Source: Burkholderiaceae bacterium (GTDB lineage Bacteria; Pseudomonadota; Gammaproteobacteria; Burkholderiales; Burkholderiaceae_F). Taken from it: a DNA stretch of 53,879 nucleotides. The notes beneath the pieces are model-generated. The model saw nothing but the letters and a program-made list of their open reading frames with translations, made no database searches and was not told the origin of the DNA. This document shows, piece by piece, positions 1,829-38,671 of the stretch (its first letter is position 1; each line of letters begins with the position of its first letter). The translations under genes and the position numbers were made by a program. The DNA lies in assembly GCA_035255845.1 (NCBI GenBank), contig DATEZE010000224.1, positions 1-53,879 on the forward strand, in the 5' to 3' direction.

Positions 1829-4036
1829 CTAGGCCGGCGTCAGCTTTGCGACCGCCAAGGCCAGCCATTTCACGCCGACCGGGCCGAAGTTGACCTGGGC
1901 CCGTGCATCGTCGCCGCTGCCTTCGAGATTGATGACGACGCCTTCGCCAAAGCGCGTGTGGCGCACCGCCTGGCCGATTCGCACGCCATGCGACGGCGCC
2001 CGTGCCGGCGGCGCGCTCGGCGCTGCAGGACGCACGCCAGCATCGTGCCACTGGCCAAAGCGGCCGCCGCCACCGACCGGCTGGCGCGGCGTCAGCCACT
2101 TGACCGCAGTTGCCGGCAACTCCTCGAGGAAACGGGATTTCATGCCGTAGCGCGTCTGTCCGTGCAGCAGACGACTCTGCGCGAGGCTGACGTAGAGCCG
2201 TCGCCGCGCACGCGTGATCGCGACATACATCAGCCGGCGCTCCTCCTCGAGTCCGTCGAGCTCGTTCAGGCTGTTTTCGTGCGGGAACAGCCCTTCCTCC
2301 AGGCCCGTGATGAACACGGCGAAAAACTCGAGTCCCTTGGCCGAGTGGACGGTCATCAGCTGCAGCGCGTCCTGGCCCGCCTCGGCCTGGTTGTCGCCGG
2401 CCTCGAGCGACGCATGGGAGAGGAACGCGGCCAGCGGCGAAGGGATCTGGGTCGCGCTTTCCTCTGCGCTCGCCTGCGTCGCCGGCGCATCCTGCGCGTA
2501 GCCTTCTTCAGAGATGAACGCGGCCGCGGCGTTGACCAACTCATTCAGGTTTTCAATGCGCTCCTGCCCTTCGCGCTCGGTCTGATAGTGCTGGATCAGC
2601 CCGCTGCGCTGCATCACCACGTCGACGATCTCCGACAACGGCAGATGAGCGGTTTCGAAGCCTAGGCTGTCGATCAGGTTCACGAACGCGCCGAGGTTGT
2701 TCCCGGCCTTGCCGGTCATGGCGCCGACCGCTGCATAAAGACTCGTGTTGCCGGCGCGCGCGGCGTCAGCGAGCTGCTCGAGCGAGCGCGCGCCAATACC
2801 GCGCGGCGGGAAATTGACGACGCGCAGGAACGCGGTGTCGTCGGCCGGATTCTCGATCAGTCGCAGGTACGCGAGCGCGTGCTTGATCTCGGCACGCTCG
2901 AAAAAACGCAGCCCACCATAGACGCGGTACGGAATCGCCGCATTGAACAGCGCATGCTCGATCACGCGTGATTGCGCGTTCGAGCGATACAGCACCGCGA
3001 TCTCAGCGCGCGCGTGGCCCTCGGCGATCAATCCCTTCACTTCGTCGACCAGCCAGGCGGCCTCGTAGCCGTCGGTCTGCGCCTCATAGACGCGCACCGG
3101 CTCGCCTTCGCCGGCGTCGGTCCACAGGTTCTTGCCCAGGCGGCGTGCGTTGTGGGCGATCAGCGCGTTGGCGGCGTTCAGGATATGAGCGACCGAGCGG
3201 TAGTTCTGCTCGAGCTTGATCAGGTTCTGCACGCGGAACTCGCGTTCGAAGTCGGCCATGTTGCCGACGTTGGCGCCGCGGAATGCATAGATGGACTGGT
3301 CGTCGTCGCCGACCGCAAAAATGGCGTTCTTCCCGCCGGCGAGCAGCTTCAGCCAGGCGTACTGCAGCTTGTTGGTGTCCTGGAACTCGTCGACGAGGAT
3401 GTGGCGGAACCGGTCCTGATAATGGGTGCGCAGGATTTCGTTGCGGTCGAGCAGTTCGTAGCAGCGCAGTAGCAGCTCGGCGAAGTCTACGACACCCTCG
3501 CGGTTGCACTGCGCGTCGTAGAGCGCGTAGAGCTCGACGAACCTGCGGTTGTAGTCGTCGTTGACCTCGACGTCCTTTGCCCGCAGACCGGCGTCTTTGG
3601 AGCTGTTGATGAAGTGCTGCAGGTTGCGCGGTGGATAGCGCTCATCATCGATGTTGTTGGCCTTCAGCAGGCGCTTGATCGCCCCGAGCTGATCGGCGGA
3701 GTCGAGGATCTGGAAGGTCGACGGCAGTCCGGCGTCACGGTGGTGCGCGCGCAGCATCCGGTTGCACAGACCGTGGAAGGTGCCGATCCACATGCCGCGC
3801 ACGTTGATCGGCAGCATCGCGGCGAGCCGCGTCAGCATTTCCTTCGCCGCCTTGTTCGTGAAGGTCACCGCGAGCACGCCCTGCGGTGACAACTGCCCGG
3901 TCTGGATCAGCCAGGCGATGCGCGTCGTCAGCACGCGGGTCTTGCCGCTGCCGGCACCGGCGAGGATCAGGGCGGACTGATTGGGAAGCGTGACGGCAGC
4001 GAGTTGCTGCTCGTTCAGGTTCTGCAACAGATTCAT
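1829..4036 (-). CDS. uvrD: DNA helicase II (UvrD, SF1 family)
   Basis: 735-aa ORF with Walker A AGAGSGKT, motif II VDEFQDTN and full-length UvrD/Rep/PcrA-like sequence including the C-terminal tail. Confidence 0.9.
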   Translation of the reverse strand: MNLLQNLNEQQLAAVTLPNQSALILAGAGSGKTRVLTTRIAWLIQTGQLSPQGVLAVTFTNKAAKEMLTRLAAMLPINVRGMWIGTFHGLCNRMLRAHHRDAGLPSTFQILDSADQLGAIKRLLKANNIDDERYPPRNLQHFINSSKDAGLRAKDVEVNDDYNRRFVELYALYDAQCNREGVVDFAELLLRCYELLDRNEILRTHYQDRFRHILVDEFQDTNKLQYAWLKLLAGGKNAIFAVGDDDQSIYAFRGANVGNMADFEREFRVQNLIKLEQNYRSVAHILNAANALIAHNARRLGKNLWTDAGEGEPVRVYEAQTDGYEAAWLVDEVKGLIAEGHARAEIAVLYRSNAQSRVIEHALFNAAIPYRVYGGLRFFERAEIKHALAYLRLIENPADDTAFLRVVNFPPRGIGARSLEQLADAARAGNTSLYAAVGAMTGKAGNNLGAFVNLIDSLGFETAHLPLSEIVDVVMQRSGLIQHYQTEREGQERIENLNELVNAAAAFISEEGYAQDAPATQASAEESATQIPSPLAAFLSHASLEAGDNQAEAGQDALQLMTVHSAKGLEFFAVFITGLEEGLFPHENSLNELDGLEEERRLMYVAITRARRRLYVSLAQSRLLHGQTRYGMKSRFLEELPATAVKWLTPRQPVGGGGRFGQWHDAGVRPAAPSAPPARAPSHGVRIGQAVRHTRFGEGVVINLEGSGDDARAQVNFGPVGVKWLALAVAKLTPA

Positions 4037-4098
4037 GAGCGGATCGCAGTTTAGCGGCCCCTATAATCGCTCCTTTGAATCAAATACTTACGAGCGTG

Positions 4099-6729
4099 AT
4101 GGAACCGAAGTACGACCCGCAAGCCGTGGAGCGAGCCGCACAGGCCCACTGGGCGCGCACGCAGGCGTATCACGCGGTCGAGCAGGCGAAGGACGCGCGC
4201 GGCAAACCTAAGCCCAAGTTTTACGTCTGCTCGATGCTGCCGTATCCCAGCGGCAAGCTGCACATGGGGCACGTGCGCAACTACACGTTGAATGACGTGA
4301 TGTATCGCATCCTGCGGATGCGCGGGTACAACGTGATGACGCCGATGGGCTGGGATGCCTTCGGCTTGCCAGCGGAGAACGCGGCGATCGAAAACAACGT
4401 TCCGCCCGCAAAGTGGACTCACGGCAACATCGCCGAGATGAAGGCGCAGATGCAGCCACTCGGGCTCGCCTTCGACTGGTCGCGCGAACTGGCCACCTGT
4501 CAGCCCGGGTACTACAGGTGGAACCAATGGATGTTCCTGCGGATGCTCGACAAGGGCATCGCCTACCGCAAGACGCAGGTCGTCAACTGGGATCCGGTCG
4601 ACCAGACCGTTCTTGCCAACGAACAGGTCGTCGACGGCCGCGGCTGGCGTTCGAACGCGATCGTCGAGAAACGCGAGATCCCCGGCTACTACCTCGGCAT
4701 CACGCGATATGCGGACGAATTGCTCGACGACCTGGAGAAGCTCGACTGGCCGCCGCAGGTCAAGGCGATGCAGGAGAACTGGATCGGCCGGAGCGTCGGC
4801 GTCAACTTCGGGTTTCCCTACGAAGTCGACGGCGAGAAGAAGCTGCTGCGTGTGTTCACGACCCGCGCCGACACGATCATGGGCGTGACCTTCATGGCGA
4901 TCGCGGCCGAGCATCCGCTTGCCGCCCGACTCGCACAAGGCCGCTCGGACATCAACGCGTTCATCGAGGAGTGCAAGAAGGGCGGCCTTGCCGAAGCCGA
5001 CCTTGCGACGATGGAAAAGAAGGGCGTGCCGACTGGATTCTCGGTCACGCATCCGCTGACCGGAGCCGCCGTGCCCGTATGGATCGGAAACTACGTGCTT
5101 ATGGGCTACGGCGAGGGCGCGGTCATGGGCGTGCCGGCGCACGACGAGCGCGACTTTGCGTTCGCGAAGAAGTACGGCTTGCCGATCCAGCAGGTGATTG
5201 GCGTGCCGGGCGAGACGTTTTCGCTCGAGGACTGGCACGAGTGGTATGCCGACAAGGCGCGCGGGACCTGCGTGAACTCGGGCAAGTACAACGGACTCGG
5301 CTATGAGGCGGCCACCGATGCGATTGCCGCTGACCTGAAAGCTAAGGGCCTCGGCGACAAACAGGTGCAGTACCGGCTGCGCGACTGGGGCATCTCGCGC
5401 CAGCGCTATTGGGGCACACCGATACCGATCATCCACTGCGAGTCCTGCGGTCCGGTGCCTGTGCCGGAAAAGGACCTGCCGGTTGTACTTCCCGAGGGCC
5501 TGATACCGGACGGCAGCGGAAACCCGCTGAACAAGTACGAGCCCTTCCTGAAGTGCACCTGCCCTCGCTGCGGCGGCCCGGGGCGGCGCGAGACCGACAC
5601 TATGGACACGTTTGTCGACTCGGCCTGGTACTACATGCGCTATTGCTCGCCGGGCGCGGCCGACGCGATGGTCGACACGCGCAACGACTACTGGATGCCG
5701 ATGGACCAGTACATCGGCGGCATCGAGCACGCGGTGTTGCACCTGCTGTACGCGCGTTTCTGGACCAAGGTGATGCGCGACATGGGGCTGGTGAAGTTCG
5801 GCGAACCGTTCCAGCGCCTGTTCACGCAAGGCATGCTGACGCACGAGTGCTACTACCGCGAGGATGCGGCGGGGAGGAAGCGCTGGTTCTATCCCGCCGA
5901 GATCGAGATCGAGTACGACGACAAGGGCCGGCCCCTCAAGGTGACGGCCCTCGAGGACGGGCTGCCGGTCAGCTTCGGCGGTATCGAGAAGATGTCGAAG
6001 AGCAAGAACAACGTGGTCGAGCCGCGCGACATCATCGACCGGTTCGGCGCCGATACCGCGCGTGCATTCGTCATGTTCGCCGGCCCGCCGGACCAGAGCG
6101 CAGCCTGGAGCAATTCGGGCGCCGAGGGCACCTATCGCTTTCTCCGGCGCCTGTGGAACTACTGCAGCGAGCGGCAGGCCGCGCTGAAATCCCAGCCGAA
6201 GCTCGACGCCCGGGCCCTGAATGCCGCGCAGAAGGAGCTGCGGCGAGACATTCACGCCAATCTTAAGCAGGCGGACTTCGACTACGCGCGCCTGCAGTAC
6301 AACACCGTCGTTTCCGCGGCGATGAAGATGCTGAACGCGCTGGAGGATGCGCGGCTCGGCCCCGCCTCGGCAGATGCGGCGCTTCTGACCGAGGCTGTGG
6401 GCATCCTGCTGCGCACGCTCTACCCAATCGCACCGCACATCTCGCACGCACTGTGGAACGAACTGGGTTATGCAGCCGCATTCGGCGCCGAGATCATCGA
6501 CGCACCGTGGCCGCAGCCCGATCCCGCGGCCCTGCAGCAGGACGAGATCGAACTCGTCGTGCAGGTCAACGGCAAGCTGCGCGCCTCGATTCGCGTGCCG
6601 GCCGCGGCCGACAATGGCGCGATCGAGCGCGCAGCGGTGGCCGATGCCAATGTTCAGAAGTTCGTCGCGGGGCAAACAGTCAAGCGGGTGATTGTCGTGC
6701 CCGGCAAGCTGGTGAACGTGGTCGTCTGA
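4099..6729 (+). CDS. leuS: leucine--tRNA ligase
   Basis: Class I signatures [12 protein letters not shown] (HIGH-type) and [10 protein letters not shown] (KMSKS). I prefer the ATG at 4099 ([11 protein letters not shown]...) to the ORF-track start at 4075. Confidence 0.95.
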
Positions 6730-9635: not shown

Positions 9636-10057
9636 CCGGTTACGCGTGGGTCAAGACGTTGCATCTGGTGTTTGTGATCAGCTGGTTCGCCGGGCTGTTC
9701 TACCTGCCTCGAATATTCGTCAACCTCGCCGACACGACAGACGCTGCCACGCGCGAACGGCTGCTTTTGATGGCACGCAAGCTGCTTCGATTCATGACCG
9801 TACTCGGTTTCCTTGCGATCGGCTTCGGCATGGTGCTCTGGGGCGGCTACGGCGTGGGCAGCAAGAGCGGTTGGATGAGCGCCAAGCTGGTACTGGTGCT
9901 CGGACTCGTTGTCTATCACGTATGGTGCGCGTTCCTGTACAAGCGCTTTGCGACCGCAACGAACACGCGCTCCCACGTTTGGTTTCGCTGGTTCAATGAA
10001 ATGCCCGTGCTGATGCTGTTTGCGATCGTCGCACTCGCGGTCGGCAAACCGTTCTAA
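9632..10057 (+). CDS. hemJ: HemJ-family membrane protein (protoporphyrinogen oxidase HemJ / UPF0093)
   Basis: 141 aa with 4 predicted TM helices and the characteristic N-terminus [25 protein letters not shown]. The start overlaps the proA stop. Confidence 0.75.
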
Positions 10058-10077
10058 TCTCGGGCGAGGACACTGCG

Positions 10078-10683
10078 ATGGCTGCAACAGTTGACTATTA
10101 CATGACTCCGGTCTCGCCGTTCACCTACTTTGGACACGAGCGGTTTCGCGCAATCTGCCGCGACCGCGGCGCCGAAATCAATTTGAAGGTCATGGACCTG
10201 GGCAAGGTCTTCCCGGTTTCGGGTGGGCTGGCGCTCAAGGATCGCGCGCCGCAGCGGCGCGCCTATCGGATGATGGAGCTCAAGCGCTGGCGCGACTTCC
10301 TCGGCATGCCGCTGACGCTGGAGCCGAAGTTCTTCCCGGTGCCGGCCGAGGCGGCGGCGACCCTGATCCTCGCAGTCCTGGAACAGCGCGGCACCGAAAC
10401 GGCGCTGGACGTGGCCGGAGACTGCCTACGCGCGATCTGGACCGAAGACCGTGACATCTCCTCGCGCGATACGCTGCGGGACATCGCTGGCGCGCGCGGG
10501 CTCGACGCGCAAGCGTTGCTGACGCAGGCCGCGTCGGCCGGCATCGCCGCCGTCTATGTGATGCAATCGCAGGAAGCAATCGCACGAGGGATCTTCGGCT
10601 CGCCGACTTATACATACAACGACGAAATCTTTTGGGGACAGGACCGGCTCGATTTTCTCGATCGCGCGCTGGCCCGCGCTTGA
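10078..10683 (+). CDS. 2-hydroxychromene-2-carboxylate isomerase family protein (DsbA-like fold)
   Basis: 201 aa. N-terminal VDYYMTPVSPFTYFG and C-terminal GIFGSPTYTYNDEIFWGQDRLDFL are typical of the HCCA isomerase/DsbA-like family. There is no CxxC motif. Confidence 0.75.
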   Translation: MAATVDYYMTPVSPFTYFGHERFRAICRDRGAEINLKVMDLGKVFPVSGGLALKDRAPQRRAYRMMELKRWRDFLGMPLTLEPKFFPVPAEAAATLILAVLEQRGTETALDVAGDCLRAIWTEDRDISSRDTLRDIAGARGLDAQALLTQAASAGIAAVYVMQSQEAIARGIFGSPTYTYNDEIFWGQDRLDFLDRALARA

Positions 10684-10719
10684 GCCTCAGTTCGACAGCC
10701 ACGCCGGCTGACCGATCTC

Positions 10720-11907
10720 ATGGCAACACGCGCTCAGTCGTACTTCGCGATCTGCCCACGCGGCCTGGAAGCCGCCCTATCCGACGAACTGCAGGCGCTT
10801 GGAGCTCGCGACGTTCTGCCGGACAACGGCGGCGCGTCATTTGCCGGCACACGCGAACTCGGCTACGCCGCCAACCTGCATTCCCGGCTCGCCAGCCGAA
10901 TCCTCTGGCAGGTTGCGCGCCGCGGCTACACGACTGAACAGCACCTGTACGACGCGACGCAGGAAGTCCGCTGGCAGGACCTGATGTCGCCGCAGCAAAC
11001 GCTGCGCGTCGACGTCACCGCGTCGAGATCACCACTCGCGAGCCTGGAATTCGCGATGCTGCGGATCAAGGATGGCATCGTCGACCGGCTGCGTGCACTC
11101 AAAGGCGAACGGCCTTCGATCGAGCGGCAGAACCCCGATGTACGCGTCTTCGCTTTCCTCGATGAACGCACCGTCACGCTCTACCTCGACCTGAGCGGCG
11201 AAGCCCTCTTCAAACGCGGCTGGCGCGCCGACAAGGGTGAGGCACCGCTGAAGGAAAACGTCGCTGCTGGCCTGCTCGCGCTCTCCGGTTGGACACCGGA
11301 GGTGCCCCTCTTCGACCCGTTCTGTGGCAGTGGCACGATCGTCATCGAGGCAGCTTGCATCGCGTCCAGCCGGGCGCCGGGCCTCGATCGAGGTTTTGCC
11401 TTCGAGCGCCTCGGTGACTTCGAGCGCGGCGCGTGGCGGCGTCTGCAGCAGCGCGCTCGTGATGCCATCGATGATAGTGCTGCGATGCTGATCGCCAGCT
11501 CCGACATCTCGACCCGAGTCATCGATCAGGCCCGCATCAACGCGGGACTGGCCGGCCTTGGGGCGCAGCTTACCGACGGACGCCTGCGGCTCGAAGCCGG
11601 CGATGCCCGCACCGCTGCGGCCCCGGCGGAGCACGGGATGATCATCTCCAACCCGCCCTATGGTGAACAGAGCAGCCCGCGTTCGGCCACGGTTCCCAAG
11701 ATGATGGCCGACGTCGGCGATCACCTGAAGGCGTCATTTCCGGGCTGGCATGCGTGGTTTCTGACGTCCGACCGGCAACTGCCGCGGCAGATGCGGCTGG
11801 CCGAGACACGCAAGCCGGTGCTCTACAACGGTGCGCTCGAGTGCCGGTTCTTTCGCTTCGAGTTGGTGGGTGGCCGATACCGGCCGCGTGGAGCAACCGG
11901 CCCCTAA
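10720..11907 (+). CDS. THUMP-domain class I SAM-dependent RNA methyltransferase (RlmL N-domain-like)
   Basis: 395 aa. SYFAICPRGLEAALSDEL (THUMP-type N-terminus), DPFCGSGTIVIEA (SAM motif I) and NPPYGEQ (motif IV). Confidence 0.8.
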   Translation: MATRAQSYFAICPRGLEAALSDELQALGARDVLPDNGGASFAGTRELGYAANLHSRLASRILWQVARRGYTTEQHLYDATQEVRWQDLMSPQQTLRVDVTASRSPLASLEFAMLRIKDGIVDRLRALKGERPSIERQNPDVRVFAFLDERTVTLYLDLSGEALFKRGWRADKGEAPLKENVAAGLLALSGWTPEVPLFDPFCGSGTIVIEAACIASSRAPGLDRGFAFERLGDFERGAWRRLQQRARDAIDDSAAMLIASSDISTRVIDQARINAGLAGLGAQLTDGRLRLEAGDARTAAAPAEHGMIISNPPYGEQSSPRSATVPKMMADVGDHLKASFPGWHAWFLTSDRQLPRQMRLAETRKPVLYNGALECRFFRFELVGGRYRPRGATGP

Positions 11908-12047
11908 GCCGGTTGCGGCGGAGTTTGGGAATACCCGGACACGCCTTGTGTGAATTTGCTGGCAGTGCAATGCTGCATACGCCAGCCGGCAACTGTCGAA
12001 TCGCCACGTGAGGCGGGAATCTGCGGCGCCCAAAATCGGGCGATTAC

Positions 12048-13940
12048 GTGATTCCGGGGAGAACGACGTTGCTGGCAGCGTTGACATCGATGGATGACGC
12101 ACGCGCGTTCAGGCGGGCGTCGCTGACTGAACTCGAGCCGCGGAAGAAGGACGTGATCCCCGAAATCCTGCCGCCAGAGATCGGGACCACGCGCGACGTG
12201 CGCACCGTGCTCGTCGCCGATGTGGTCGAGTCCGTGCGCCTGATGCAGGAAGACGAAGCCGGGACCGTCCAGCGCTGGCGCGCGTTCGTCGATCACGTCG
12301 TTCATCGGTTGTTGCCAGGACAGGAAGGCCGTCTCGTCAAGAGTCTGGGCGACGGACTGATGCTCGAGTTCCCGCGAGTCAACACGGCAATCGGCATCGC
12401 GTTCGCGATGCAGGAAGCAGCGGTCCACGCAAATGTCGACGTTGCACCGGAGCGCAAGCTGCACTTGCGCATCGGCATCCATGTCAGCGCGCGTGTCGCC
12501 GACGAACACGACATCTACGGGCACGGCGTCAACCTGGCCGCCCGCCTGACCACGCTCGCGGGACCCGACGAGATCGTCGTTTCCGCGGACGTGCGCGATC
12601 AGCTCACACCGGCGCTCGATGCCGACATCGAAGACCTGGGCGAGTGCTATGTAAAGCACGTGCAGCAACCGGTGCGTGCATTCCGTGTCGGCGCACCCGG
12701 CGAACAGCCGGTGATCGAACGCGGCAACCTCACGGAGGACCTGCGCGCGACCATCGCTGTCATACCGTTCCGGCCACGCGCGCTGCAGTCAACCGACGAC
12801 GTGCTCGGGCAGTTGCTGGCTGACGAGGTGATCTCGGCCCTGTCGCACTCGCCCGAGGTCAACGTGATCTCGCGTCTGTCGACGTCAACTTTCCAGGGAC
12901 GCGATGTCAAGCTCGAAGACGTCAGCGCGTATCTGCGGGCTGACTACGTAGTGTCGGGCTCCTACCACGTCGACGGCGATCGCGTGACGCTGAAGGCCGA
13001 GATGGCCGAAACGCGATCGATGCAGGTCATCTGGTCGCAATCGCTGAAGGGCAGCGTTAACGGCGTGATCGCCGGCGACGATCCCCTTGCCAACCATCTC
13101 GTAAGCCAGGCCTGTGCCGCGATGATGGTGCGCGAACTGCAGCAGTCGCAGGGCAAGGCTCCGCAGAGTCTGCAGAATCACACGTTGCTCCTATCGAGCA
13201 TCGCGCTGATGCATCGGATCTCGCCGCTCGCGTTCCAGCGCTCGGAGCAGCTCCTGCAGGTGCTGATCGACCGCACGCCGCGTCTGGCCTCGCCCTACGC
13301 CTGGATGGCGAAATGGCACGTTCTGCGAGTGACGCAGGGTTGGTCCAGCGACGCGCAGTCGGATGGGAAGGTCGCCCTAGAAAACACCAAGCGCGCGCTT
13401 GACCGTGACGCCACGTCGTCCCTCGCAATGACCGTCGAGGGCCAGGTCAATACCTACATCTTGAAGCGGCTCGATATCGCCGAGCAGCTGTATGCGCAGG
13501 CGCTGCAATCCAACCCCAACGATTCGCTCGCGTGGCTGCTGAAAGGCACGCTGCACGCGTTCCGCGACGAAGGCAAGGAAGCGGTACGGCATACGCGGCA
13601 TGCGCTGAAGCTCTCGCCGCTCGATCCGCTGAAGTACTACTTCGATTCGCTGGCAGCCACGGCCGCCCTGTCCGCGCACGACTACGCTCGCGCACTACAA
13701 CTGACGGAACGATCACTTCGCTTGAACCGCACGCACGCTTCGACCCTTCGCGTAATGATCACAGCACTGGTTCGACTGGGCCGCATGGACGATGCTCGCC
13801 GGCATACTGAACAACTACTCAGACTCGAACCAGGCTTCAGCGTGGCGCTTCATATGGAGCGGTCGCCGGGTGCTCCTTACAAAATTGGTCGCGACGTTGC
13901 AACGGCGCTCGCGGACGCGGGCGTTCCACTGCGTGCCTGA
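12048..13940 (+). CDS. class III adenylate/guanylate cyclase fused to TolB-N-like and TPR modules
   Basis: 630 aa. Cyclase motifs are VLVADVVESVRLM (metal Asp), VKSLGDGLMLEF (Lys and second Asp) and GHGVNLAARL (Asn/Arg). Next comes ATIAVIPFRPRA...LADEVISALS (TolB-N-like), then a C-terminal helical TPR-like region. GTG start at 12048, with an alternative ATG at 12090. Confidence 0.85.
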   Translation: MIPGRTTLLAALTSMDDARAFRRASLTELEPRKKDVIPEILPPEIGTTRDVRTVLVADVVESVRLMQEDEAGTVQRWRAFVDHVVHRLLPGQEGRLVKSLGDGLMLEFPRVNTAIGIAFAMQEAAVHANVDVAPERKLHLRIGIHVSARVADEHDIYGHGVNLAARLTTLAGPDEIVVSADVRDQLTPALDADIEDLGECYVKHVQQPVRAFRVGAPGEQPVIERGNLTEDLRATIAVIPFRPRALQSTDDVLGQLLADEVISALSHSPEVNVISRLSTSTFQGRDVKLEDVSAYLRADYVVSGSYHVDGDRVTLKAEMAETRSMQVIWSQSLKGSVNGVIAGDDPLANHLVSQACAAMMVRELQQSQGKAPQSLQNHTLLLSSIALMHRISPLAFQRSEQLLQVLIDRTPRLASPYAWMAKWHVLRVTQGWSSDAQSDGKVALENTKRALDRDATSSLAMTVEGQVNTYILKRLDIAEQLYAQALQSNPNDSLAWLLKGTLHAFRDEGKEAVRHTRHALKLSPLDPLKYYFDSLAATAALSAHDYARALQLTERSLRLNRTHASTLRVMITALVRLGRMDDARRHTEQLLRLEPGFSVALHMERSPGAPYKIGRDVATALADAGVPLRA

Positions 13941-13977
13941 TGACAAGCCGAAATGAACTTCGGGAAGGGAAAAACTT

Positions 13978-15171
13978 ATGAGCTGGCTAGAGGGCATGGA
14001 AGGCATGGAAGGCATGGAGGGGATGGAGGGCATGGAGGGGATGGAGGGCATGGAAGGCATGCAGGGCATGTTTCAGCGCTTCCCTTCGGGCGCCTTGATC
14101 ACTCACCGCGACGGGATCGTCGGTTCCTGGGCCATCCCTGCGGTTGGCGTCGGATGGACACTGCCGCCCCGCACTTCCAGCACGGACGGCAATCTAAAAT
14201 TATGGGACCCGCGCATCCGCAGCTTCGTGCTCGAGTCCGAGCTGCTGTCGCGGCTTTGCTTCGGCGTTGACACCAATCCGGTCGGCGGCGTGAAGTGGGC
14301 AACTCTCTGGGCGCTCGAAGTGACGGCGGCCGCGACGGGCTCGAGCCCGCCGATGTGGAATACGCCGGCAGCAATCAATGCCGGCCTGATTCCTGCCGGC
14401 AACTGGACCCCACTGGTTCAAATGCAGGAGCCGGAACCTGCTGTGTTGGACGATCAGCTGGACCTCGTAGCAGGCTACGCGGATTTACGTGGCGACCGCG
14501 CGCGCGAAATCGTCGCGCAGATTCAAGTGCAATACTCGTTCTGGGGTTCCGTGGTTCCGCTTTTCACGGCGCGACACAAGCGGACGTTTGAGTTGATCCG
14601 GCTGGTCCTGCAGCTCGCCAAGTACGCGGAGATGAACTTCAAGAACGCGTTCGGCGTCCAGCGTCCGCACGAACGGTCCGCGCAGATCCAGCCGATGATC
14701 TCGACGCCGATCCATGGGTCGTTTCCAAGCGGACACGCCACTGAGGCCATCACCGTCGCGCGCGTGCTGTACGAGCTCGTGAGCCAGAACTCCGGAAATG
14801 CGAACGGCAAGCAGCAACTTCGAGAAATGCTGCTGCGGCAGGCGGCACGCATTGCGATCAACCGCACGGTCGCAGGCGTGCATTACCCGATCGACAGTCT
14901 TGCAGGGCAGATGCTGGGCCTGAGCATTGCCGAGTATGCGCTTGCACGGATGCGTCCGACCAACAATCCGGTCAACACTTGGCAGTTCGTCCCATCCGCG
15001 GCCAACGTGCCAAACGGTACGGACTTCACCGGCCACGAGCTCTTTCACTTCGTCAACAACGCTCGAACCGCAACCACGTACGCGCAGCAACCGGCGGGGT
15101 CCGCCTCCAAAGTCGCAACGTCTCCGAGCTTAGTGTGGCTGTGGGGCGAAGCGCTCGCGGAGTGGCAGTGA
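13978..15171 (+). CDS. soluble PAP2 / vanadium-haloperoxidase-fold protein with N-terminal (MEG)n tract
   Basis: 397 aa. The full PAP2 active-site signature is present: K222-x6-R229-P230 (KNAFGVQRP), P250-S-G-H253 (PSGH) and R296-x5-H302-x3-D306 (RTVAGVHYPID). I see no TM helix or signal peptide. The true start could be any of the repeated ATGs up to 14068. Confidence 0.75.
   Translation: MSWLEGMEGMEGMEGMEGMEGMEGMEGMQGMFQRFPSGALITHRDGIVGSWAIPAVGVGWTLPPRTSSTDGNLKLWDPRIRSFVLESELLSRLCFGVDTNPVGGVKWATLWALEVTAAATGSSPPMWNTPAAINAGLIPAGNWTPLVQMQEPEPAVLDDQLDLVAGYADLRGDRAREIVAQIQVQYSFWGSVVPLFTARHKRTFELIRLVLQLAKYAEMNFKNAFGVQRPHERSAQIQPMISTPIHGSFPSGHATEAITVARVLYELVSQNSGNANGKQQLREMLLRQAARIAINRTVAGVHYPIDSLAGQMLGLSIAEYALARMRPTNNPVNTWQFVPSAANVPNGTDFTGHELFHFVNNARTATTYAQQPAGSASKVATSPSLVWLWGEALAEWQ
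13993..14070 (+). repeat. 9-nt tandem repeat (GGCATGGAR), about 8.7 copies, encoding (Met-Glu-Gly)n
   Basis: Read directly: ggcatggaa ggcatggaa ggcatggag gggatggag ggcatggag gggatggag ggcatggaa ggcatgcag ggcatg. It lies in-frame at the 5' end of the 13978..15171 ORF. Confidence 0.95.
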
Positions 15172-15172
15172 A

Positions 15173-17560
15173 ATGCACGACCTGCCACCTAACGCCAGTT
15201 CGGACGAAAGGCCAAAGCGCCCAGCGCAGCCGTATCTCGATTGGGCCCTGGCGACCGGCTTTAGCTATTTGCGCGAAGGCAAGTGGATCCCTCTTTTAAT
15301 CGAGTTCAACGCAACCGAAGCGAGGAAGCCGCCTGGCAACGAGCGGCTCGCTGCGTTGGAAGCCTTCGCAACGCGACGTTGGTTGAACGATGATCCACGC
15401 ACGCTCGACGACGAGTTCGTTATCCCGGATCTCTTCGCCAATCCGCCCGCACTGCTGCGCCGGTCATCCGACTTCAATTTCTCCGTCGGGCTGATAAAGC
15501 GAGACGTTGAGGTCGTGCGTAGGCTGACGCAGTTGGACGGCTGGAACCGCACCATCCATCGGGTCGAATTGGGGCCGCCGATCAACTTCGCGGACAAGAC
15601 CGCTCCGGCGCTGAATGGATTTGCGTCCGGTCCGACCCCGCCGTCACCGACGTCGCGCGTGAAGCCTCGTAGTCGGCGCGACATAGCCAGCCGGACAATC
15701 GCGGCAGTGCGACGAGGAATTGCCCGCATCCGTTCGTGGCTCGCTGGCTCAGGATCACCCGGATCGGCGAGCGCAGGCGCGCCACCGCCTCCTCCGCCAC
15801 CCGCTTCAACGAACCCGGCGGGAACACCCGGAACGCCGAGTCCGGGATCGCCCCGGACAGCGCCGCCACGCGGCCAGTCGCAAGGTTCGAGCGCAGGCAG
15901 TGGTTCCGCAGACCAGTTCGAGCGCGTCGTCATCGCTGTCATCGATCAAGGTATCGCATTCGCCAACTCGCGCTTCTTCACTGGCGGAGCACCACGCATC
16001 GAGTACTTGTGGCAACAGAATGTGCTCGGCACGACTATTCCCGCCCCCGGCTTGACGATGCCGTTCACGCCGGGATTCGAGCTCAACCAAGCTGCAATCA
16101 TCAATGCTGTTGCCGCCGCCAGACTGGTGGGCGCTGACGACGAATGGGCGTATCGCAATTTTGGCGGCCTGAACTTCGGCATCGATGGTTATAAGCCGCT
16201 CGCGCGTCGGCGAACGCACGGAACGCATGTACTTGACCTGGCGGCTTCAGTCGCAAATCCGGCGAAACACCCGATCATCGCGGTCGACATGCCCGAGGAT
16301 GCAGTCGGTGACCCGGCTGGATCGACTCTCGCGGTGCAGGCAGCATGGGGTCTCATTTACATACTCGATCGCGCCGAGAAAATGCGCAAACCGAACGAGA
16401 CTCTGCCGGTCGTCGCGAATCTCAGCTACGGTCCCCACGAAGGACCGCACGACGGCACTTCGCTGTTCGAAGCCTTCATGGACGCGATATACGCGGCATC
16501 AGACACAACTCCGACGCCGATCGAGATCGTGCTCGCGGCCGGCAACTATAAGCAGACGCGCGCACACGCAGCGTTCGATCTCGCGAGCGGACAAAATCAG
16601 ACACTTCAATGGCGGCTTCAGCCCGGCAGCCTGACGGCCAGCTTGATGGAAATCTGGTTGCCGCCGCTGCCGCCAGGGTCCGGGCACCAAGTCACCGTAA
16701 CGCTGACGCCGCCAAACCCTTCAGCAACGCTGACTCCGATTACGGTGTCAACAAATGCCAACCATACCGATGAGGTTCCGACGGGCGCCACAACCAATGT
16801 GCTCTACCAGGCGAGGTATGAGCTGCCGTCGGGATCCGCCACGCGCGACTCTATCGTGCTCAGCATCGCCCGAACAGCACCAGACCCGGATGGAAGCTGG
16901 GGCCAGGCGGTCGTCCCATCCGGAATCTGGATGGTAACGGTGCAGTCAGCTACTCCCACACAGGTCATCCATGCGTGGATCCGGCGGTCCGATACGTTGT
17001 CGGGTCGGCGCGCGAAGGGCCGACAGTCCTACTTCGACGACCCCGATCCGGCGAGCTACCAGCGATTCTGGCCCAACGGCCGACCCCGCGATTTCGACCC
17101 GGTGGGTTCGCCGAGCTACGTGCGACGCATGCAGACACTAAGCGGGATCGCAACAGGCGACGAGCCGCGCATCATCGGCGGTTACTGCAATTCGGATTCG
17201 TATCCCGCCCATTACTCGTCCCATGGAACCCGCGTCCGGGCGGCAGTAACCACCGGACCCGATTGGCTAGAATGCTCTGATGATTCCGATGTGCTGCGCG
17301 GCGTGCATGCTGCGGGCACGCAATCCGGGTCGGTCGCAGCAATGAACGGGACCAGTGTCTCGGCTCCGCAGGCCACGCGTTGTATCGCCCAGGCATGGTT
17401 GGGGTTGGCTATCGGACAGCGACCCGGTCTTCCGCCAGGTCTGTTGCCCATTGTCGTACCTCGCCACCGACCGATACCTCTGGCCGAGTTCCCATTCGCT
17501 GCCACCAACGGCCGGGCGCCCTTTGCGCCAAGGTGGCCGCCGCGCCGACCGTACCCCTGA
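15173..17560 (+). CDS. subtilase (peptidase S8) without signal peptide; unknown N-terminal domain plus Pro/Gly/Ser-rich linker
   Basis: 795 aa. Catalytic signatures are VIAVID258QGI, RRRTH349GTHV, LAAGN458 and NGTS728VSAP, with codons checked at nt 15944, 16217, 16544 and 17354. Low-complexity tract at about aa 150-245 (GAPPPPPPPASTNPAGTPGTPSPGSP). The ATG is 1 nt after the upstream stop. Confidence 0.85.
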   Translation: MHDLPPNASSDERPKRPAQPYLDWALATGFSYLREGKWIPLLIEFNATEARKPPGNERLAALEAFATRRWLNDDPRTLDDEFVIPDLFANPPALLRRSSDFNFSVGLIKRDVEVVRRLTQLDGWNRTIHRVELGPPINFADKTAPALNGFASGPTPPSPTSRVKPRSRRDIASRTIAAVRRGIARIRSWLAGSGSPGSASAGAPPPPPPPASTNPAGTPGTPSPGSPRTAPPRGQSQGSSAGSGSADQFERVVIAVIDQGIAFANSRFFTGGAPRIEYLWQQNVLGTTIPAPGLTMPFTPGFELNQAAIINAVAAARLVGADDEWAYRNFGGLNFGIDGYKPLARRRTHGTHVLDLAASVANPAKHPIIAVDMPEDAVGDPAGSTLAVQAAWGLIYILDRAEKMRKPNETLPVVANLSYGPHEGPHDGTSLFEAFMDAIYAASDTTPTPIEIVLAAGNYKQTRAHAAFDLASGQNQTLQWRLQPGSLTASLMEIWLPPLPPGSGHQVTVTLTPPNPSATLTPITVSTNANHTDEVPTGATTNVLYQARYELPSGSATRDSIVLSIARTAPDPDGSWGQAVVPSGIWMVTVQSATPTQVIHAWIRRSDTLSGRRAKGRQSYFDDPDPASYQRFWPNGRPRDFDPVGSPSYVRRMQTLSGIATGDEPRIIGGYCNSDSYPAHYSSHGTRVRAAVTTGPDWLECSDDSDVLRGVHAAGTQSGSVAAMNGTSVSAPQATRCIAQAWLGLAIGQRPGLPPGLLPIVVPRHRPIPLAEFPFAATNGRAPFAPRWPPRRPYP

Positions 17561-17561
17561 G

Positions 17562-18047
17562 CTACGCCGCCAGCGCTCGTCCAACGTCCTTTTCCAAGTC
17601 CTCCGGCTTCGTCGTCGGCGCATAACGCTCGACGACGTTGCCCTCTTTATCGACCAGAAACTTGGTGAAGTTCCATTTGATCGCCTCGCTGCCGAGCAGG
17701 CCCTTTTTGGTGCTCGTCAAGTATTTGAACAGCGGGTGCGCGGCTTCGCCGTTGACATCGATCTTCGAGAACATCGGAAAGGTCACGCCGTAGTTCATCT
17801 CGCAGAACTCGGCGATCTCTGACTCGGGCCCCGGCTCCTGCTGGCCGAACTGGTTGCTTGGGAAACCGAGCACCGCGAAGCCGTTGTCCTTGTACTTCTT
17901 GTAGAGCGCTTCCAGCCCTTTGTACTGCGGCGTGAAGCCGCACTGGCTGGCAGTGTTCACGACCAGCAGCACTTTGCCCTTGTAGTCGGAAAGCCTGCGC
18001 GCCTTGCCGTCGATGGTCTTGGCGCTGAAGTCGTAGACAGTGGTCAT
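17562..18047 (-). CDS. gpx: glutathione peroxidase (Cys-type)
   Basis: [15 protein letters not shown]...[14 protein letters not shown]...[14 protein letters not shown] is the canonical GPx signature. The active-site residue is a TGC Cys codon. I prefer the ATG at 18047. Confidence 0.9.
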
Positions 18048-18100
18048 TGGCGCGCCCCTGGGAGTTTCCAAGATTCCAGTTTAGCGACCGCGCCCGGCAG

Positions 18101-37300: not shown

Positions 37301-37774
37301 ATGAACTATTGGCTGATGAAGTCAGAGCCGGACGAGTGTTCGATCGACGACACGCTCGCTGCGCCGTACCGGACCGTCCCATGGACCGGGGTGCGTAACT
37401 ACCAGGCACGCAACTTCATGCGCGACCTGATGAAGATCGGCGACGGCGTTCTGTTCTACCACTCGAGTTGCGCCGAGCCTGGCATCGCCGGACTGGCGGA
37501 AGTTGCCAGCGCGCCGTATCCCGATCCGACGCAGTTCCAGCGAAAAAGCCCGTACTTCGACGCCGCCTCGACGCGCGATACGCCGCGCTGGGTGCTCGTC
37601 GATATCCGCGCCCGGCGCAAGACGCGGCTGATACCGCTCGCCGAGTTGCGTGAGCACGCGGCGCTGCGCAATATGGTCGTACTCAGACGCGGCAATCGGC
37701 TGTCGATCACGCCGGTTACGGCCGATGAGTGGGAGTTCATCACGCGGGCGCTGCTGAAAGACCGGGCTCAATGA
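37301..37774 (+). CDS. EVE-domain (PUA-like) protein
   Basis: 157 aa. MNYWLMKSEPDECSIDD...VRNYQARNFMRD...GDGVLFYHS is the canonical stand-alone EVE domain. Confidence 0.85.
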   Translation: MNYWLMKSEPDECSIDDTLAAPYRTVPWTGVRNYQARNFMRDLMKIGDGVLFYHSSCAEPGIAGLAEVASAPYPDPTQFQRKSPYFDAASTRDTPRWVLVDIRARRKTRLIPLAELREHAALRNMVVLRRGNRLSITPVTADEWEFITRALLKDRAQ

Positions 37775-38580: not shown

Positions 38581-38671
38581 TCCGCGCGGCTGCCGCGCAG
38601 CTTGCGCATCTCGCTTTCCGGTGCGCTCCGCCGGCCGCATAATGGAGCGCGAACGACACGGTGGAACGGCA

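Follow-up and report, generated by a model that had tools for sequence, protein, structure and literature searches.

Analysis of the window, the whole 53.9-kb stretch of DNA under study, revealed three co-directional genes coding for a cyclase-TPR regulator (gene 1), a PAP2-superfamily phosphatase (gene 2) and an S8 subtilase (gene 3), which together constitute a mobile, accessory and self-contained three-gene module. The initial annotation had stated that this combination matches no known system, and no description of the triad was indeed found in the literature searched; the cassette is apparently undescribed and present in hundreds of proteobacterial species. As a tentative reading, we propose that gene 1 is a sensor-regulator controlling a co-adapted pair formed by the S8 protease and the PAP2 phosphatase. 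The features of the cassette and its neighbours are collected in Table 1.

Table 1. Cassette features and neighbouring genes in the window, in nucleotide positions and residues of the encoded proteins.
Feature	Nucleotides	Strand	Residues	Remarks
THUMP/RlmL-type methyltransferase gene	10720-11907			Upstream of cassette
Conserved non-coding block	11946-11976	+		TTGTGTGAATTTGC-N5-GTGCAATGCTGC; ~70-100 nt upstream of gene 1
Gene 1, signal-transducing regulator	12048-13940	+	630 aa	GTG start
Gene 1, class III adenylate cyclase domain	12195-12692		~50-215
Gene 1, TolB_N/FlgO-like middle domain	12720-13187		~225-380
Gene 1, TPR sensor	13188-13937		~381-630
Gene 2, soluble PAP2-superfamily histidine phosphatase	13978-15171	+	397 aa
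In-frame 9-nt tandem repeat	13990-14070	+		GAGGGCATG x 9; TRF score 120
PAP2, disordered N-terminus			1-67	MEG repeats
PAP2, extra alpha/beta region			~70-160
PAP2, catalytic helical core	14578-14967		~201-330
PAP2, C-terminal extension				Ends in invariant E-W motif
Gene 3, Csp-like subtilase	15173-17560	+	795 aa
S8, family-specific N-domain	15173-15595		1-141
S8, disordered P/G/S linker	15596-15907		142-245
S8, catalytic part 1	15920-16564			D258, H349, N458
S8, jellyroll-type beta insertion	16565-16987		~465-605
S8, catalytic part 2	16988-17557			S728
gpx	17562-18071			Convergent with cassette
Crp-family regulator gene (cNMP_binding + HTH_Crp)	38621-39313	+		Pfam E 2e-25

The gaps between the three open reading frames measure 37 nt and 1 nt, and the stop of the S8 gene lies 1 nt from that of gpx; this layout, with an RNA methyltransferase gene upstream and gpx downstream, is as the initial annotation had described it. 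Among 185,579 species genomes, 338 relatives of the S8 protein were found, and neighbourhoods were counted in the best 80 of these 338 loci plus the window. The recurring families are PAP2 (78 sources), S8 (78) and gene 1 (74). PAP2 lies directly upstream of S8 in 78/81 sources, the exceptions being contig truncations or frameshifts, and gene 1 is present in 74/74 sources with enough upstream sequence, the seven sources without it being all truncated at contig ends. The hosts belong to the Alpha-, Beta- and a few Gammaproteobacteria, and plasmids also carry the triad; the adjacency is thus kept outside close relatives, as the initial annotation had left to be checked, and none of the three proteins falls into a characterised housekeeping family, a possibility it had also raised. 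In related loci, gene 1 and PAP2 are typically separated by ~12-80 nt and PAP2 and S8 by ~1-60 nt, and the three genes usually form one operon-like row, except in three loci (L023, L044 and L068) where gene 1 is divergent from PAP2-S8, as is usual for a regulator and the genes it controls. Beyond the triad, only a Crp-family regulator gene recurs; no other conserved ORF, large or small, was found near the cassette. The Shine-Dalgarno sequence of S8 (GGAG) is embedded in the final codons of PAP2, which specify the invariant C-terminus, and the two genes are predicted to be translationally coupled. The adjacency of the triad is far beyond chance. That three independently acting genes came together fortuitously is ruled out by neighbourhood conservation across relatives and deserves practically no credence: the same three families occur in the same order across classes and replicons in every informative source, and correlated divergence and the predicted coupling argue in the same direction.

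In gene 1, the initial annotation had recognised a class III cyclase fused to TolB-N-like and TPR modules. Searches against Pfam and NCBIfam support the cyclase (Guanylate_cyc, residues 53-204, E 2.4e-10) and the TPR part (residues ~430-600), but the middle part gave sub-threshold matches only (FlgO, E 7e-4; TolB, E 0.017). The PDB matches are class III cyclases (3mr7, 7e-19; Ma1120, 2e-15), and residues 229-525 match a model of the HilA/EilA wHTH-TPR regulators (E 2e-12). The cyclase residues D58, K98, D102, D155, N162 and R166 are all intact in the window and are kept in 52-58 of 73 aligned gene-1 sequences, an alignment in which non-cyclase and truncated copies make up most of the sequences without them. 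From established class III cyclase motifs, we take Lys98/Asp155 to be a substrate-specifying pair of the adenine type.

In at least 11 loci, a winged-helix DNA-binding domain replaces the cyclase on a homologous TolB_N-like/TPR sensor, and the sensor part is conserved across these swaps. The replacing domain is a Trans_reg_C (OmpR/CadC-type) wHTH in L052, L066, L075 and the Phaeobacter locus L083, and a SARP-like wHTH in L032, L044, L045, L058, L064, L068 and L073, with BTAD also in L032. This bears on the analogy with CBASS and Pycsar drawn in the initial annotation, in which S8 and/or PAP2 would be effectors directly activated by the cyclic nucleotide that gene 1 produces. An intact class III cyclase beside two enzymes is what such a switch would contain, and PADLOC returned a weak, generic PycC match for gene 1 (21.9 bits, E 2.3e-5). 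The cyclase is however dispensable for the module, as the swaps show, its residue pair is presumably of the adenine type, profile searches found no cNMP-binding, SAVED, CARF or other nucleotide-sensor domain in PAP2 or S8, and the associated readers are Crp-type receptors. Direct activation of S8 and/or PAP2 by a nucleotide is thus not borne out and appears very improbable.

Crp-family genes lie within ~3 kb of ~18 cyclase-type cassettes, those of Hydrogenophaga and Methylobacterium among them, and adjoin 0/11 wHTH-type cassettes (one-sided hypergeometric P ~0.03, calculated by hand and not corrected for kinship). The earlier remark that no cNMP receptor is present therefore holds inside the cassette but not for the vicinity of many relatives. 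In the window itself no Crp gene is adjacent; the nearest, listed in Table 1, lies 21 kb from the cassette and clusters with the cassette-adjoining Crp proteins of other Burkholderiales (46-52% identity), which makes it a candidate reader of cAMP from gene 1. Upstream of gene 1, the motif TGTGA-N6-TCACA occurs with at most one mismatch in 5/64 loci vs 0.41 expected (max 3), and with at most two in 15/64 vs 6.1 expected (max 13), expectations being taken from composition-matched shuffles (n=300); such boxes are found in a minority of loci only. Because a wHTH can take the place of the cyclase, Crp genes accompany cyclase-type cassettes only and CRP boxes are enriched, the output of gene 1 is most likely transcriptional and not a CBASS-like switch.

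In the window, the conserved non-coding block overlaps a weak CRP-like site (TGTGAATTTGCTGGCA, 11949-11964, 2 mismatches), although the strongly conserved block is itself no CRP palindrome. The block occurs once in the window, and copies with 0-2 mismatches precede gene 1 in six other loci (L008, L010, L012, L013, L086 and L085), the last of which bears an additional copy with 4 mismatches. It is absent elsewhere in the loci scanned, the empty-site locus L087 included, and matched no family in an Rfam search. The block, which travels with the cassette, is a candidate promoter or operator.

The PAP2 domain of gene 2 was matched at residues 214-319 (Pfam, E 4e-13), in agreement with the superfamily first proposed for it. 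The likeness to vanadium haloperoxidases suggested earlier is the weaker one: the AlphaFold2 model (pLDDT 77.7) has class A acid phosphatases as top Foldseek matches (7f17, PhoN and PhoC; E ~1e-6, target TM 0.6-0.7), vs E 1e-2 or worse for the haloperoxidases, and the modelled core thus appears closest to soluble class A acid phosphatases. All 71 homologues have K222, R229, H253, R296, H302 and D306, and nearly all have P230 and S251. The tandem repeat encodes an (M-E-G)n N-terminal tail, and distant homologues likewise carry G/M-rich N-terminal repeats. In Kyte-Doolittle profiles with 19-residue windows, values stayed at or below 1.21 for all three proteins, none of which has a hydrophobic N-terminus; this is in line with the initial annotation, which had noted neither a transmembrane helix nor a signal peptide in PAP2 and no signal peptide in S8. 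By this simple hydropathy measure, PAP2 and S8 are predicted to be cytoplasmic.

In gene 3, the Peptidase_S8 match spans residues 252-742 (Pfam), and D258, H349, N458 and S728 are kept in 76-79 of 79 homologues; the catalytic residues that had been reported as intact in cyclase, PAP2 and S8 are thus present in the window and conserved among homologues. The best PDB sequence match is CspB of C. difficile (9sj6, 1e-11). Csp proteins fill the first 11 places in a Foldseek search with the AlphaFold2 model (E 1e-15 to 1e-11), in which ordinary subtilisins did not reach significance. The N-domain that the initial annotation could not place is confined to the S8 family of the cassette, without match in Pfam and PDB profile searches, and the Pro/Gly/Ser linker it had pointed out is lineage-specific and corresponds to residues disordered in the model. 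Since similarity to subtilase prodomains is not detectable, it is the position of the N-domain and the analogy with Csp proteins that suggest that S8 is probably made as a zymogen, with the N-domain as a retained or removable prodomain.

In related genomes, a single rlmL-gpx site exists in three states: with a window-type cassette, with a deeply divergent one (L085, L086) or empty (L087). Cassettes from Alpha- and Betaproteobacteria are intermingled within clades, a sign of horizontal transfer; copies are carried by plasmids or chromids of Rhizobium, Paraburkholderia and Bosea and by 21 Phaeobacter plasmids, and IS66 and IS110 transposases adjoin some copies. Between syntenic loci, identity is 74-91% for gene 1, 44-75% for PAP2 and 32-66% for S8, the last two diverging at two to three times the rate of gene 1 and the flanking genes. 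Pairwise identities of PAP2 and S8 are tightly correlated (r = 0.89) vs r = 0.62-0.68 for gene 1, a pattern that would fit one regulator over a co-adapted effector pair. Conserved catalytic residues and dN/dS values of 0.06-0.31, highest in S8 and 0.06-0.18 in gene 1, the slowest-evolving, place all three genes under purifying selection. When the window is compared with L001, dS amounts to 0.32 for S8 as against 1.21 (gene 1) and 1.51 (PAP2), a contrast that points to intra-cassette mosaicism.

The sensor-regulator model does not explain why the cassette evolves fast, is transferred horizontally and has its alleles replaced at one site, features that hint at a role in conflict. In a module for conflict or anti-phage defence, toxic or protective PAP2 and S8 effectors would be made or activated upon infection or attack, with gene 1 raising the alarm; the patchy distribution, the horizontal transfer, the copies on plasmids and chromids, the neighbouring transposases, the three states of one site, the rapid divergence of PAP2-S8, the dN/dS of S8 and the mosaicism would all be in keeping with it. 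PADLOC, however, gave beyond the generic PycC hit only an insignificant IetS match (E 0.012) and nothing for PAP2. The defence-rich surroundings envisaged earlier were not encountered either: among 117 flanking proteins from 33 loci, the defence search returned only generic ATPase and methyltransferase cross-matches and no recurrent defence gene, cassette flanks encode transport and metabolism, and the neighbours in the window are housekeeping genes. No phage-borne relative was found, dN/dS revealed gene-wide positive selection in none of the genes, and the slow evolution of the gene 1 sensor would be unusual for a sensor of invaders. We consider a conflict role unlikely; as it concerns biological role, it can coexist with the sensor-regulator wiring.

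Control might also run in the opposite direction, in the manner of RRNPP systems or of regulated proteolysis. Together with PAP2, S8 would make or remove the ligand of the TPR sensor, or would cleave gene 1, which would report PAP2-S8 activity to transcription via cAMP or DNA binding. Peptides or protein termini are the typical ligands of TPR domains, the sensor part is kept whatever the output, PAP2 ends in an invariant E-W, and the triad is obligate and usually one operon, an arrangement that gene 1 acting downstream of PAP2 and S8 would fit equally well. Csp relatives moreover work in a proteolytic signalling cascade (PMC3567191). On the other hand, no small ORF for a propeptide is conserved near the cassette, and variation in the less conserved parts of S8 is not mirrored in gene 1: between L008 and the window the TPR part is 91% identical and the S8 N-domain 40%, which speaks against S8 or PAP2 surfaces being specifically recognised. 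A regulator acting on the locus also agrees with the three divergent loci, the associated Crp genes and the CRP boxes. This reversal seems quite unlikely to us, and we tentatively infer that control is exerted by gene 1 on PAP2-S8.

In the sensor-regulator model, the TolB_N-like/TPR part of gene 1 would sense a cue and gene 1 would turn it into a transcriptional output: in the window by way of cAMP and a Crp-family factor that reads it, in other lineages through direct DNA binding by a wHTH fused to the homologous sensor. The output would act at least on the promoter region of the cassette itself, with the conserved block. PAP2, as a histidine phosphatase resembling class A acid phosphatases, would act with S8 as its partner or substrate. 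S8, by analogy with CspB probably a zymogen with an N-terminal prodomain, would cleave one or few specific proteins. It resembles the clostridial Csp proteases in the jellyroll insertion of its catalytic domain, which accounts for the long spacing between N458 and S728; CspB itself combines a retained prodomain and a jellyroll insertion with the activation of a zymogen, pro-SleC (PMC3567191).

A pattern scan with the S8 alignment across 185,579 species genomes yielded 338 relatives of the subtilase, and the best 80 of these 338 loci were analysed by tblastn and all-against-all clustering of ORFs, which were called mechanically in loci that are in many cases MAGs. In these 80 loci together with the window only three families recur, namely PAP2 (78 sources), S8 (78 sources) and the cyclase-TPR regulator, gene 1 (74 sources), and every source missing a member of the triad is either truncated at a contig end or comes from a long-read MAG with a frameshift. 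Gene 1 invariably comes first, PAP2 second and S8 third, with short gaps between them; gene 1 is divergently oriented relative to PAP2-S8 in L023, L044 and L068 (loci compared with the window are numbered with the prefix L). No fourth conserved gene, large or small, was found in the best 80 of 338 loci, and the small ORFs of 25-95 aa lying up to 1.5 kb from the cassette are in no case conserved outside close relatives. Independent look-ups from the PAP2 homologues of Hydrogenophaga and Methylobacterium led to the same triad again. Pairwise identities of PAP2 and S8 are correlated with r = 0.89, and those of either protein with the TPR part of gene 1 with r = 0.62-0.68. The initial annotation had coupled the three genes from adjacency and spacing; the neighbourhood analysis upholds them as a linked unit, and a chance adjacency of three genes is now scarcely conceivable. 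In two MAG loci (L012, 8823-11954; L010, 10001-11465) PAP2 and/or S8 seem to be spread across two reading frames, which could reflect pseudogenisation or long-read indel errors.

In the window, the three ORFs lie exactly where they had first been placed, separated by 37 nt (gene 1-PAP2) and 1 nt (PAP2-S8), and Pfam and NCBIfam searches agree with the domain content proposed for the three proteins. The TolB-N-like module of gene 1 stands in part, as the middle of the protein does match FlgO/TolB_N, but below threshold. Kyte-Doolittle scanning, a crude test for export signals, detected zero signal-like or TM-like hydrophobic segments in all three proteins, again as annotated; the maximum over 12 residues in the first 40 aa of PAP2 is -0.13, and this N-terminus is not hydrophobic. 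The Shine-Dalgarno GGAG of S8 sits within the final codons of PAP2 (window 15161-15175), which suggests that the two genes are translationally coupled. The same GGAG is made by the codons of the invariant Glu-Trp that ends the C-terminal extension of PAP2, so that a conserved protein motif and the putative coupling signal overlap. A scan of the cassette for sigma-70 promoters and terminators gave sites not above shuffled sequence.

Coordinates of the cassette, its flanks and associated features, and of the rlmL-gpx site in related loci
Feature	Locus	Position	Strand	Remarks
THUMP/RlmL-type methyltransferase gene	window	10720-11907		upstream flank of cassette
Conserved non-coding block TTGTGTGAATTTGC-N5-GTGCAATGCTGC	window	11946-11976		31 nt, upstream of gene 1
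Gene 1	window	12048-13940	+	GTG start, 630 aa
PAP2	window	13978-15171	+	397 aa
In-frame 9-nt tandem repeat, GAGGGCATG x 9	window	13990-14070	+	encodes the N-terminal (M-E-G)n tail of PAP2
S8	window	15173-17560	+	795 aa
P/G/S-rich disordered linker	window	15596-15907	+	S8 aa 142-245, between N-domain and catalytic domain
gpx	window	17562-18071		convergent with cassette, downstream flank
Crp-family regulator	window	38621-39313	+	same cluster as cassette-linked Crps
rlmL-gpx site	window	10720-18071		window-type cassette
rlmL-gpx site	L085, L086	9001-15910		deeply divergent cassette
rlmL-gpx site	L087	9001-10696		empty, 28-nt gap

Gene 1 encodes a class III cyclase domain (aa 53-204, with a Guanylate_cyc score exceeding the Pfam gathering threshold) and TPRs at aa ~430-600 (Pfam, NCBIfam); its PDB sequence matches are class III cyclases (3mr7, 7e-19; Ma1120, 2e-15). 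All six class III catalytic positions, D58, K98, D102, D155, N162 and R166, are kept in the window and are found in 52-58 of 73 aligned gene-1 sequences, most of the exceptions being non-cyclase and truncated copies included in the alignment. From established class III motifs, we take D58 and D102 to be the metal-binding aspartates, K98 and D155 the substrate pair, and N162 and R166 the transition-state residues. The Lys98/Asp155 specificity pair is presumably of the adenine type, so ATP is the predicted substrate. The sensor region (aa 229-525) matches the model of the HilA/EilA wHTH-TPR regulators (E 2e-12), and the N-terminal winged-helix DNA-binding domain is absent from gene 1 of the window, where the cyclase holds that place (Pfam).

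At least 11 cassettes have another domain in place of the cyclase on a common TolB_N-like/TPR scaffold. An OmpR/CadC-type Trans_reg_C wHTH occupies gene 1 of L052, L066, L075 and L083 (Phaeobacter pGal_C110), and a SARP-like wHTH that of L032 (with BTAD), L044, L045, L058, L064, L068 and L073; the domain was seen directly in L052, L083, L032 and L044, and by homology in L045, L058, L064, L066, L068, L073 and L075. A second, distantly related cyclase-TPR gene (27-28% identical) lies nearby in L020 (13269-15014) and L058 (589-2748), and gene 1 of L022 (3-2345) apparently carries two cyclase domains.

The only other recurrent neighbour of the triad is a gene for a Crp-family regulator (cNMP_binding + HTH_Crp), located within ~3 kb of ~18 cyclase-type cassettes and of 0/11 wHTH-type cassettes, an association with a one-sided probability of ~0.03 (hand calculation, uncorrected for relatedness). 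No Crp gene adjoins the cassette of the window; the nearest, at 21 kb, encodes a protein that shares 46-52% identity with the Crps linked to the cassette in other Burkholderiales. A TauE gene (37729-38580) is directly upstream of it, and the Hydrogenophaga cassette (L081) also has a TauE gene nearby (3835-4650), possibly by coincidence. A protein of ~230-245 aa with weak PAS and LuxR/GerE-type HTH matches, which could be a further regulator, adjoins the cassette-linked Crp in L081 (11677-12372, minus strand) and in L082 from Methylobacterium (12061-12795, plus strand).

Boxes of the CRP type (TGTGA-N6-TCACA) were scanned for in the 380 nt around and upstream of the gene 1 start of 64 loci. With at most one mismatch they occur in 5/64 loci (0.41 expected) and with at most two in 15/64 (6.1 expected), neither count being attained in any of 300 composition-matched shuffles; L019 has a perfect box, TGTGAAGCAGCTCACA, and the window a CRP-like site at 11949-11964 with 2 mismatches. 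This site overlaps a 31-nt non-coding block, strongly conserved and distinct from the CRP-type boxes, that recurs with 0-2 mismatches in L008 (6747), L010 (6831), L012 (6714) and L013 (6826) and, unexpectedly, also in L085 (10236) and L086 (10230), where the cassette proteins are 30-49% identical to those of the window. The block is missing at the empty-site locus L087 and has zero Rfam matches as an RNA element. It contains an imperfect palindrome, GTGCA-N4-TGCA(C/T), and L085 has a second copy with 4 mismatches at 10366. Neither FNR-type nor Clr-type (TGTT-N8-AACA) boxes were found upstream of gene 1.

Taken together, the output-domain swap, the Crp neighbours and the upstream CRP-type boxes indicate, at the level of sequence, that gene 1 outputs to transcription, via cAMP or by direct DNA binding. 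The initial annotation had likened the cassette to CBASS and Pycsar, in which a nucleotide directly activates the effectors. Such an activation is highly improbable here: it is contradicted by the output-domain swap, and nucleotide sensors are absent. Segments of the cNMP-binding, TIR or TM kind are absent from PAP2 and S8, and CD-NTase, SAVED or related domains are found neither in the cassette nor recurrently in the best 80 of 338 loci. The domain searches also agree with the annotated lack of an ATPase and of a cNMP/SAVED/CARF receptor within the triad; an IetA-like ATPase is absent from all analysed loci, and no ATPase gene recurs beside S8.

The PAP2 domain (aa 214-319, Pfam) bears the complete signature KxxxxxxRP, PSGH and (S)RxxxxxHxxxD; K222, R229, H253, R296, H302 and D306 are kept in 71/71 homologues, S251 in 70/71 and P230 in 66/71. 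The active-site motifs of the PAP2/vanadium-haloperoxidase fold first assigned to this protein are therefore sound, but haloperoxidases are not its closest fold. In Foldseek searches with the AF2 model (pLDDT 77.7), the best matches are soluble class A acid phosphatases (7f17, PhoN and PhoC; E ~1e-6, target TM 0.6-0.7, rmsd 2.4-3 over ~185 residues), whereas vanadium haloperoxidases match weakly (E 1e-2 to 0.3), and the haloperoxidase reading was demoted since acid phosphatases are ~10,000-fold better by E-value. PAP2 homologues have a weak match to PF22778 (VCPO_2nd). PAP2 may still have vanadium haloperoxidase activity, because that family has the same active site and does match weakly.

The known class A acid phosphatases, ~230 aa long, bear a signal peptide and are either secreted or periplasmic. 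PAP2 shares the helical core and full motifs of PhoN, PhoC, EB-NSAP and the Pseudomonas aeruginosa enzyme 7f17, but differs from them in its 397 aa without signal peptide or TM helix, with ~200 residues added at the N-terminus (disordered repeats and an alpha/beta region) and 65 at the C-terminus. No structural match was obtained for aa 1-67, the alpha/beta region (~70-160) or the C-terminal extension of the AF2 model, in which aa 1-67, containing the MEG repeat, are disordered. Distant PAP2 homologues likewise begin with G/M-rich short repeats (e.g. MTGMTG, GGLGGL), and a low-complexity, possibly length-variable N-tail thus seems to be a trait of the family.

The Pfam match of S8 is stretched across aa 252-742, and the catalytic residues D258, H349, N458 and S728, annotated as intact, are kept in 76-79 of 79 homologues. 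In the AF2 model the long Asn-Ser spacing is a beta-rich insertion (aa ~465-605). The best PDB sequence match is CspB of Clostridium difficile (9sj6, 1e-11), and the top 11 Foldseek matches are all CspB, CspA or CspC (E 1e-15 to 1e-11); no others are significant, ordinary subtilisins included. Like Csp subtilases (4i0w, 9sj6, 9pr8, 6mw4), S8 has a jellyroll-type beta insertion that parts its oxyanion Asn from its catalytic Ser, and an extra N-terminal domain in prodomain position. Csp proteins, too, are not known to bear a signal peptide. They are defined by the jellyroll insertion together with a prodomain that remains bound, and CspB, with its prodomain retained, is a specific activator of the zymogen pro-SleC (PMC3567191). 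S8 also differs from Csp subtilases: its sequence identity to them is only 14-16%; its gene is always paired with those of PAP2 and the TPR regulator; and, unlike the Clostridia in which Csp proteins serve spore germination, its hosts are non-sporulating Proteobacteria without SleC or a germination context (nearly all Alpha-, Beta- and Gammaproteobacteria, plus one MAG labelled Anaerolineae).

The N-domain of S8 (aa 13-140), which the initial annotation could not place, is confidently folded in the AF2 model, occupies the position expected of a prodomain and appears specific to the S8 family of the cassette. It has no match in Pfam at E<=1 or in the PDB profile search, similarity to any subtilase prodomain was not detected by Pfam, PDB profile or sequence searches, and the 48 relatives retrieved by phmmer from 1.84 billion representatives are, almost without exception, N-terminal ends or fragments of members of this S8 family. 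The annotated Pro/Gly/Ser linker is real and disordered in the AF2 model; this lineage-specific stretch of 100 aa, another difference from Csp proteins, is found only in the closest relatives of the window, most S8 family members being short-linkered. The Polaromonas locus L074 has a second, tandem S8 paralogue (10001-11512, 12186-13769).

Clustering of S8 sequences separates three clades: one holds only Burkholderiales, the window among them, another is formed by Polaromonas/Ramlibacter, and a third, large one mixes Alpha- and Betaproteobacteria. The mixed clade indicates transfer of the cassette between proteobacterial classes, and relatives are carried by plasmids and chromids of Rhizobium, Paraburkholderia and Bosea and by 21 Phaeobacter plasmids. 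Starting from RlmL homologues, three states of the rlmL-gpx site were found in related Burkholderiales within an otherwise identical core neighbourhood (uvrD-leuS-lptE-holA-proA-hemJ-dsbA-rlmL ... gpx-pilU-pilT-yggS): the window-type cassette, a deeply divergent cassette and an empty site. Identity across syntenic loci amounts to 74-98% for the flanking genes and 74-91% for gene 1, but to only 44-75% for PAP2 and 32-66% for S8. The dN/dS ratio is at most 0.31 for all three genes, highest in S8 (0.12-0.31) and lowest in gene 1 (0.06-0.18), and gives no gene-wide positive selection in gene 1, PAP2 or S8. Between the window and L001, dS shows a ~four-fold spread (S8 0.32, gene 1 1.21, PAP2 1.51); such unequal values point to a mosaic cassette whose S8 segment was probably exchanged recently by recombination.

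Replacement at a hot spot and the fast evolution of PAP2-S8 would suit a module acting as a conflict or defence system, a function compatible with gene 1 controlling the pair. We regard it as rather unlikely, since the genomic context, the PADLOC results and the slow evolution of the sensor gene argue against it. In PADLOC, gene 1 has a weak, generic match to the PycC model (21.9 bits, E 2.3e-5), the match of S8 to the IetS HMM is insignificant (11.9 bits, E 0.012), no single stretch being sufficient by itself, and PAP2 has zero matches. The 117 flanking proteins of 33 diverse loci gave only ABC-ATPase and methyltransferase cross-matches, and PADLOC and Pfam reveal no recurrent defence genes there; the initial annotation had suggested checking for defence-rich islands, and none is apparent at these loci. 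Membership in a defence system was rejected on these grounds. The flanks carry transport and metabolic genes and a few IS66 and IS110 transposases (Pfam). A phage origin was also rejected: searched with S8 by tblastn, 50,697 phage records contained no relative.

In its broader form, also improbable in our judgement, the triad would be a new prokaryotic conflict or stress-alarm system with a rapidly diversifying cytoplasmic PAP2-S8 pair. The conserved TPR sensor would raise a transcriptional alarm via cAMP-Crp or direct DNA binding, the alarm would deploy a Csp-like protease zymogen and the PAP2 phosphatase against invader or self proteins, and recombination at fixed hot spots of the chromosome would swap PAP2-S8 alleles. 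Csp-type subtilases would thereby gain, within the searches made, a first functional context other than spore germination.

The best-supported reading, which we favour tentatively and at somewhat under even chances, is a self-contained accessory module in which gene 1 would be the cluster-situated sensor-regulator of the cassette. PAP2 and S8 would be a pair of co-adapted enzymes, coupled in translation and controlled by gene 1, with S8 as a Csp-like specific protease, probably of the zymogen type, and PAP2 as its partner or substrate. In this model we infer which way control runs, that S8 behaves as a zymogen, where the proteins reside and what they act on. The wiring could run in reverse, with S8 and PAP2 generating or removing a ligand of the TPRs, much as an S8 protease could in principle make a peptide ligand in a circuit of the RRNPP kind; gene 1 and S8 fail to co-vary and no propeptide ORF was found, so that this direction seems quite unlikely.

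Each part of the triad belongs to a known superfamily. As noted at first annotation, the combination matches no known system: no paper describing the triad was found in the literature search, and the obligate triad, a proteobacterial Csp-type subtilase, its PAP2 partner and the cyclase-to-wHTH swap are absent from the literature and model libraries searched. We rate the triad as an accessory operon under local regulation whose effector pair is new. If the model of a gene 1-controlled pair holds, it would constitute a widespread uncharacterised signalling module, present in at least 338 species-level genomes and many plasmids. Class III adenylate cyclase and DNA-binding domains would then be interchangeable outputs of one sensor, making local cAMP-Crp circuits readable from genome context. 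Moreover, the triad would bring to Proteobacteria the Csp-type subtilases, so far known only from the germination of clostridial spores, and their obligate PAP2 phosphatase partner would imply a protease-phosphatase mechanism for which no precedent was found. Because its enzyme pair evolves fast and alleles are replaced at the locus, the cassette qualifies as a tractable candidate for a new system of conflict or niche adaptation, and culturable hosts exist for genetics in Variovorax, Phaeobacter, Bradyrhizobium and Methylobacterium.

What the triad has in common with Pycsar, CBASS and IetAS is that it encodes both a nucleotide cyclase and a subtilase devoid of a signal peptide, and that its distribution is patchy and mobile. 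It differs from this group in having no CD-NTase, no cNMP/SAVED/CARF sensor on any effector and no IetA-like ATPase, in matching the HMMs only generically (PycC) or insignificantly (IetS), and in a cyclase that is replaceable by a DNA-binding domain. With the RRNPP regulators (Rap, NprR, PlcR, AimR) it shares a TPR sensor fused to an output domain, but no propeptide ORF adjoins it, output domains and phyla differ, its proteins appear cytoplasmic and no export/import system is linked.

Its regulatory logic has precedents in SARPs, in HilA-type wHTH-TPR regulators and in CyaD1-Clr of Sinorhizobium meliloti (PMC5498481, PMC4222275). In the latter species, the class III cyclases CyaD1, CyaD2 and CyaK signal to a dedicated Crp-family regulator, Clr, with smc02178 as a target and an output restricted to a small gene set of unknown function (PMC5498481, PMC4222275). 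The Crp genes beside ~18 cyclase-type cassettes and the enriched upstream CRP boxes recall this circuit. Its cyclases, however, have CHASE2 sensors and unrelated targets, the Clr regulon paper does not mention PAP2 or protease targets, the window has no adjoining Crp gene, and Clr-type boxes were absent upstream of gene 1. Finally, the gene 1 sensor region matches the HilA/EilA model, and gene 1 orthologues in cassettes of other lineages bear a Trans_reg_C or SARP/BTAD wHTH on the shared scaffold. As with SARPs, the wHTH regulators of the cassettes adjoin the genes they presumably control, and gene 1 of the window departs from the HilA/EilA and SARP-TPR proteins in carrying a class III adenylate cyclase in place of the DNA-binding domain.
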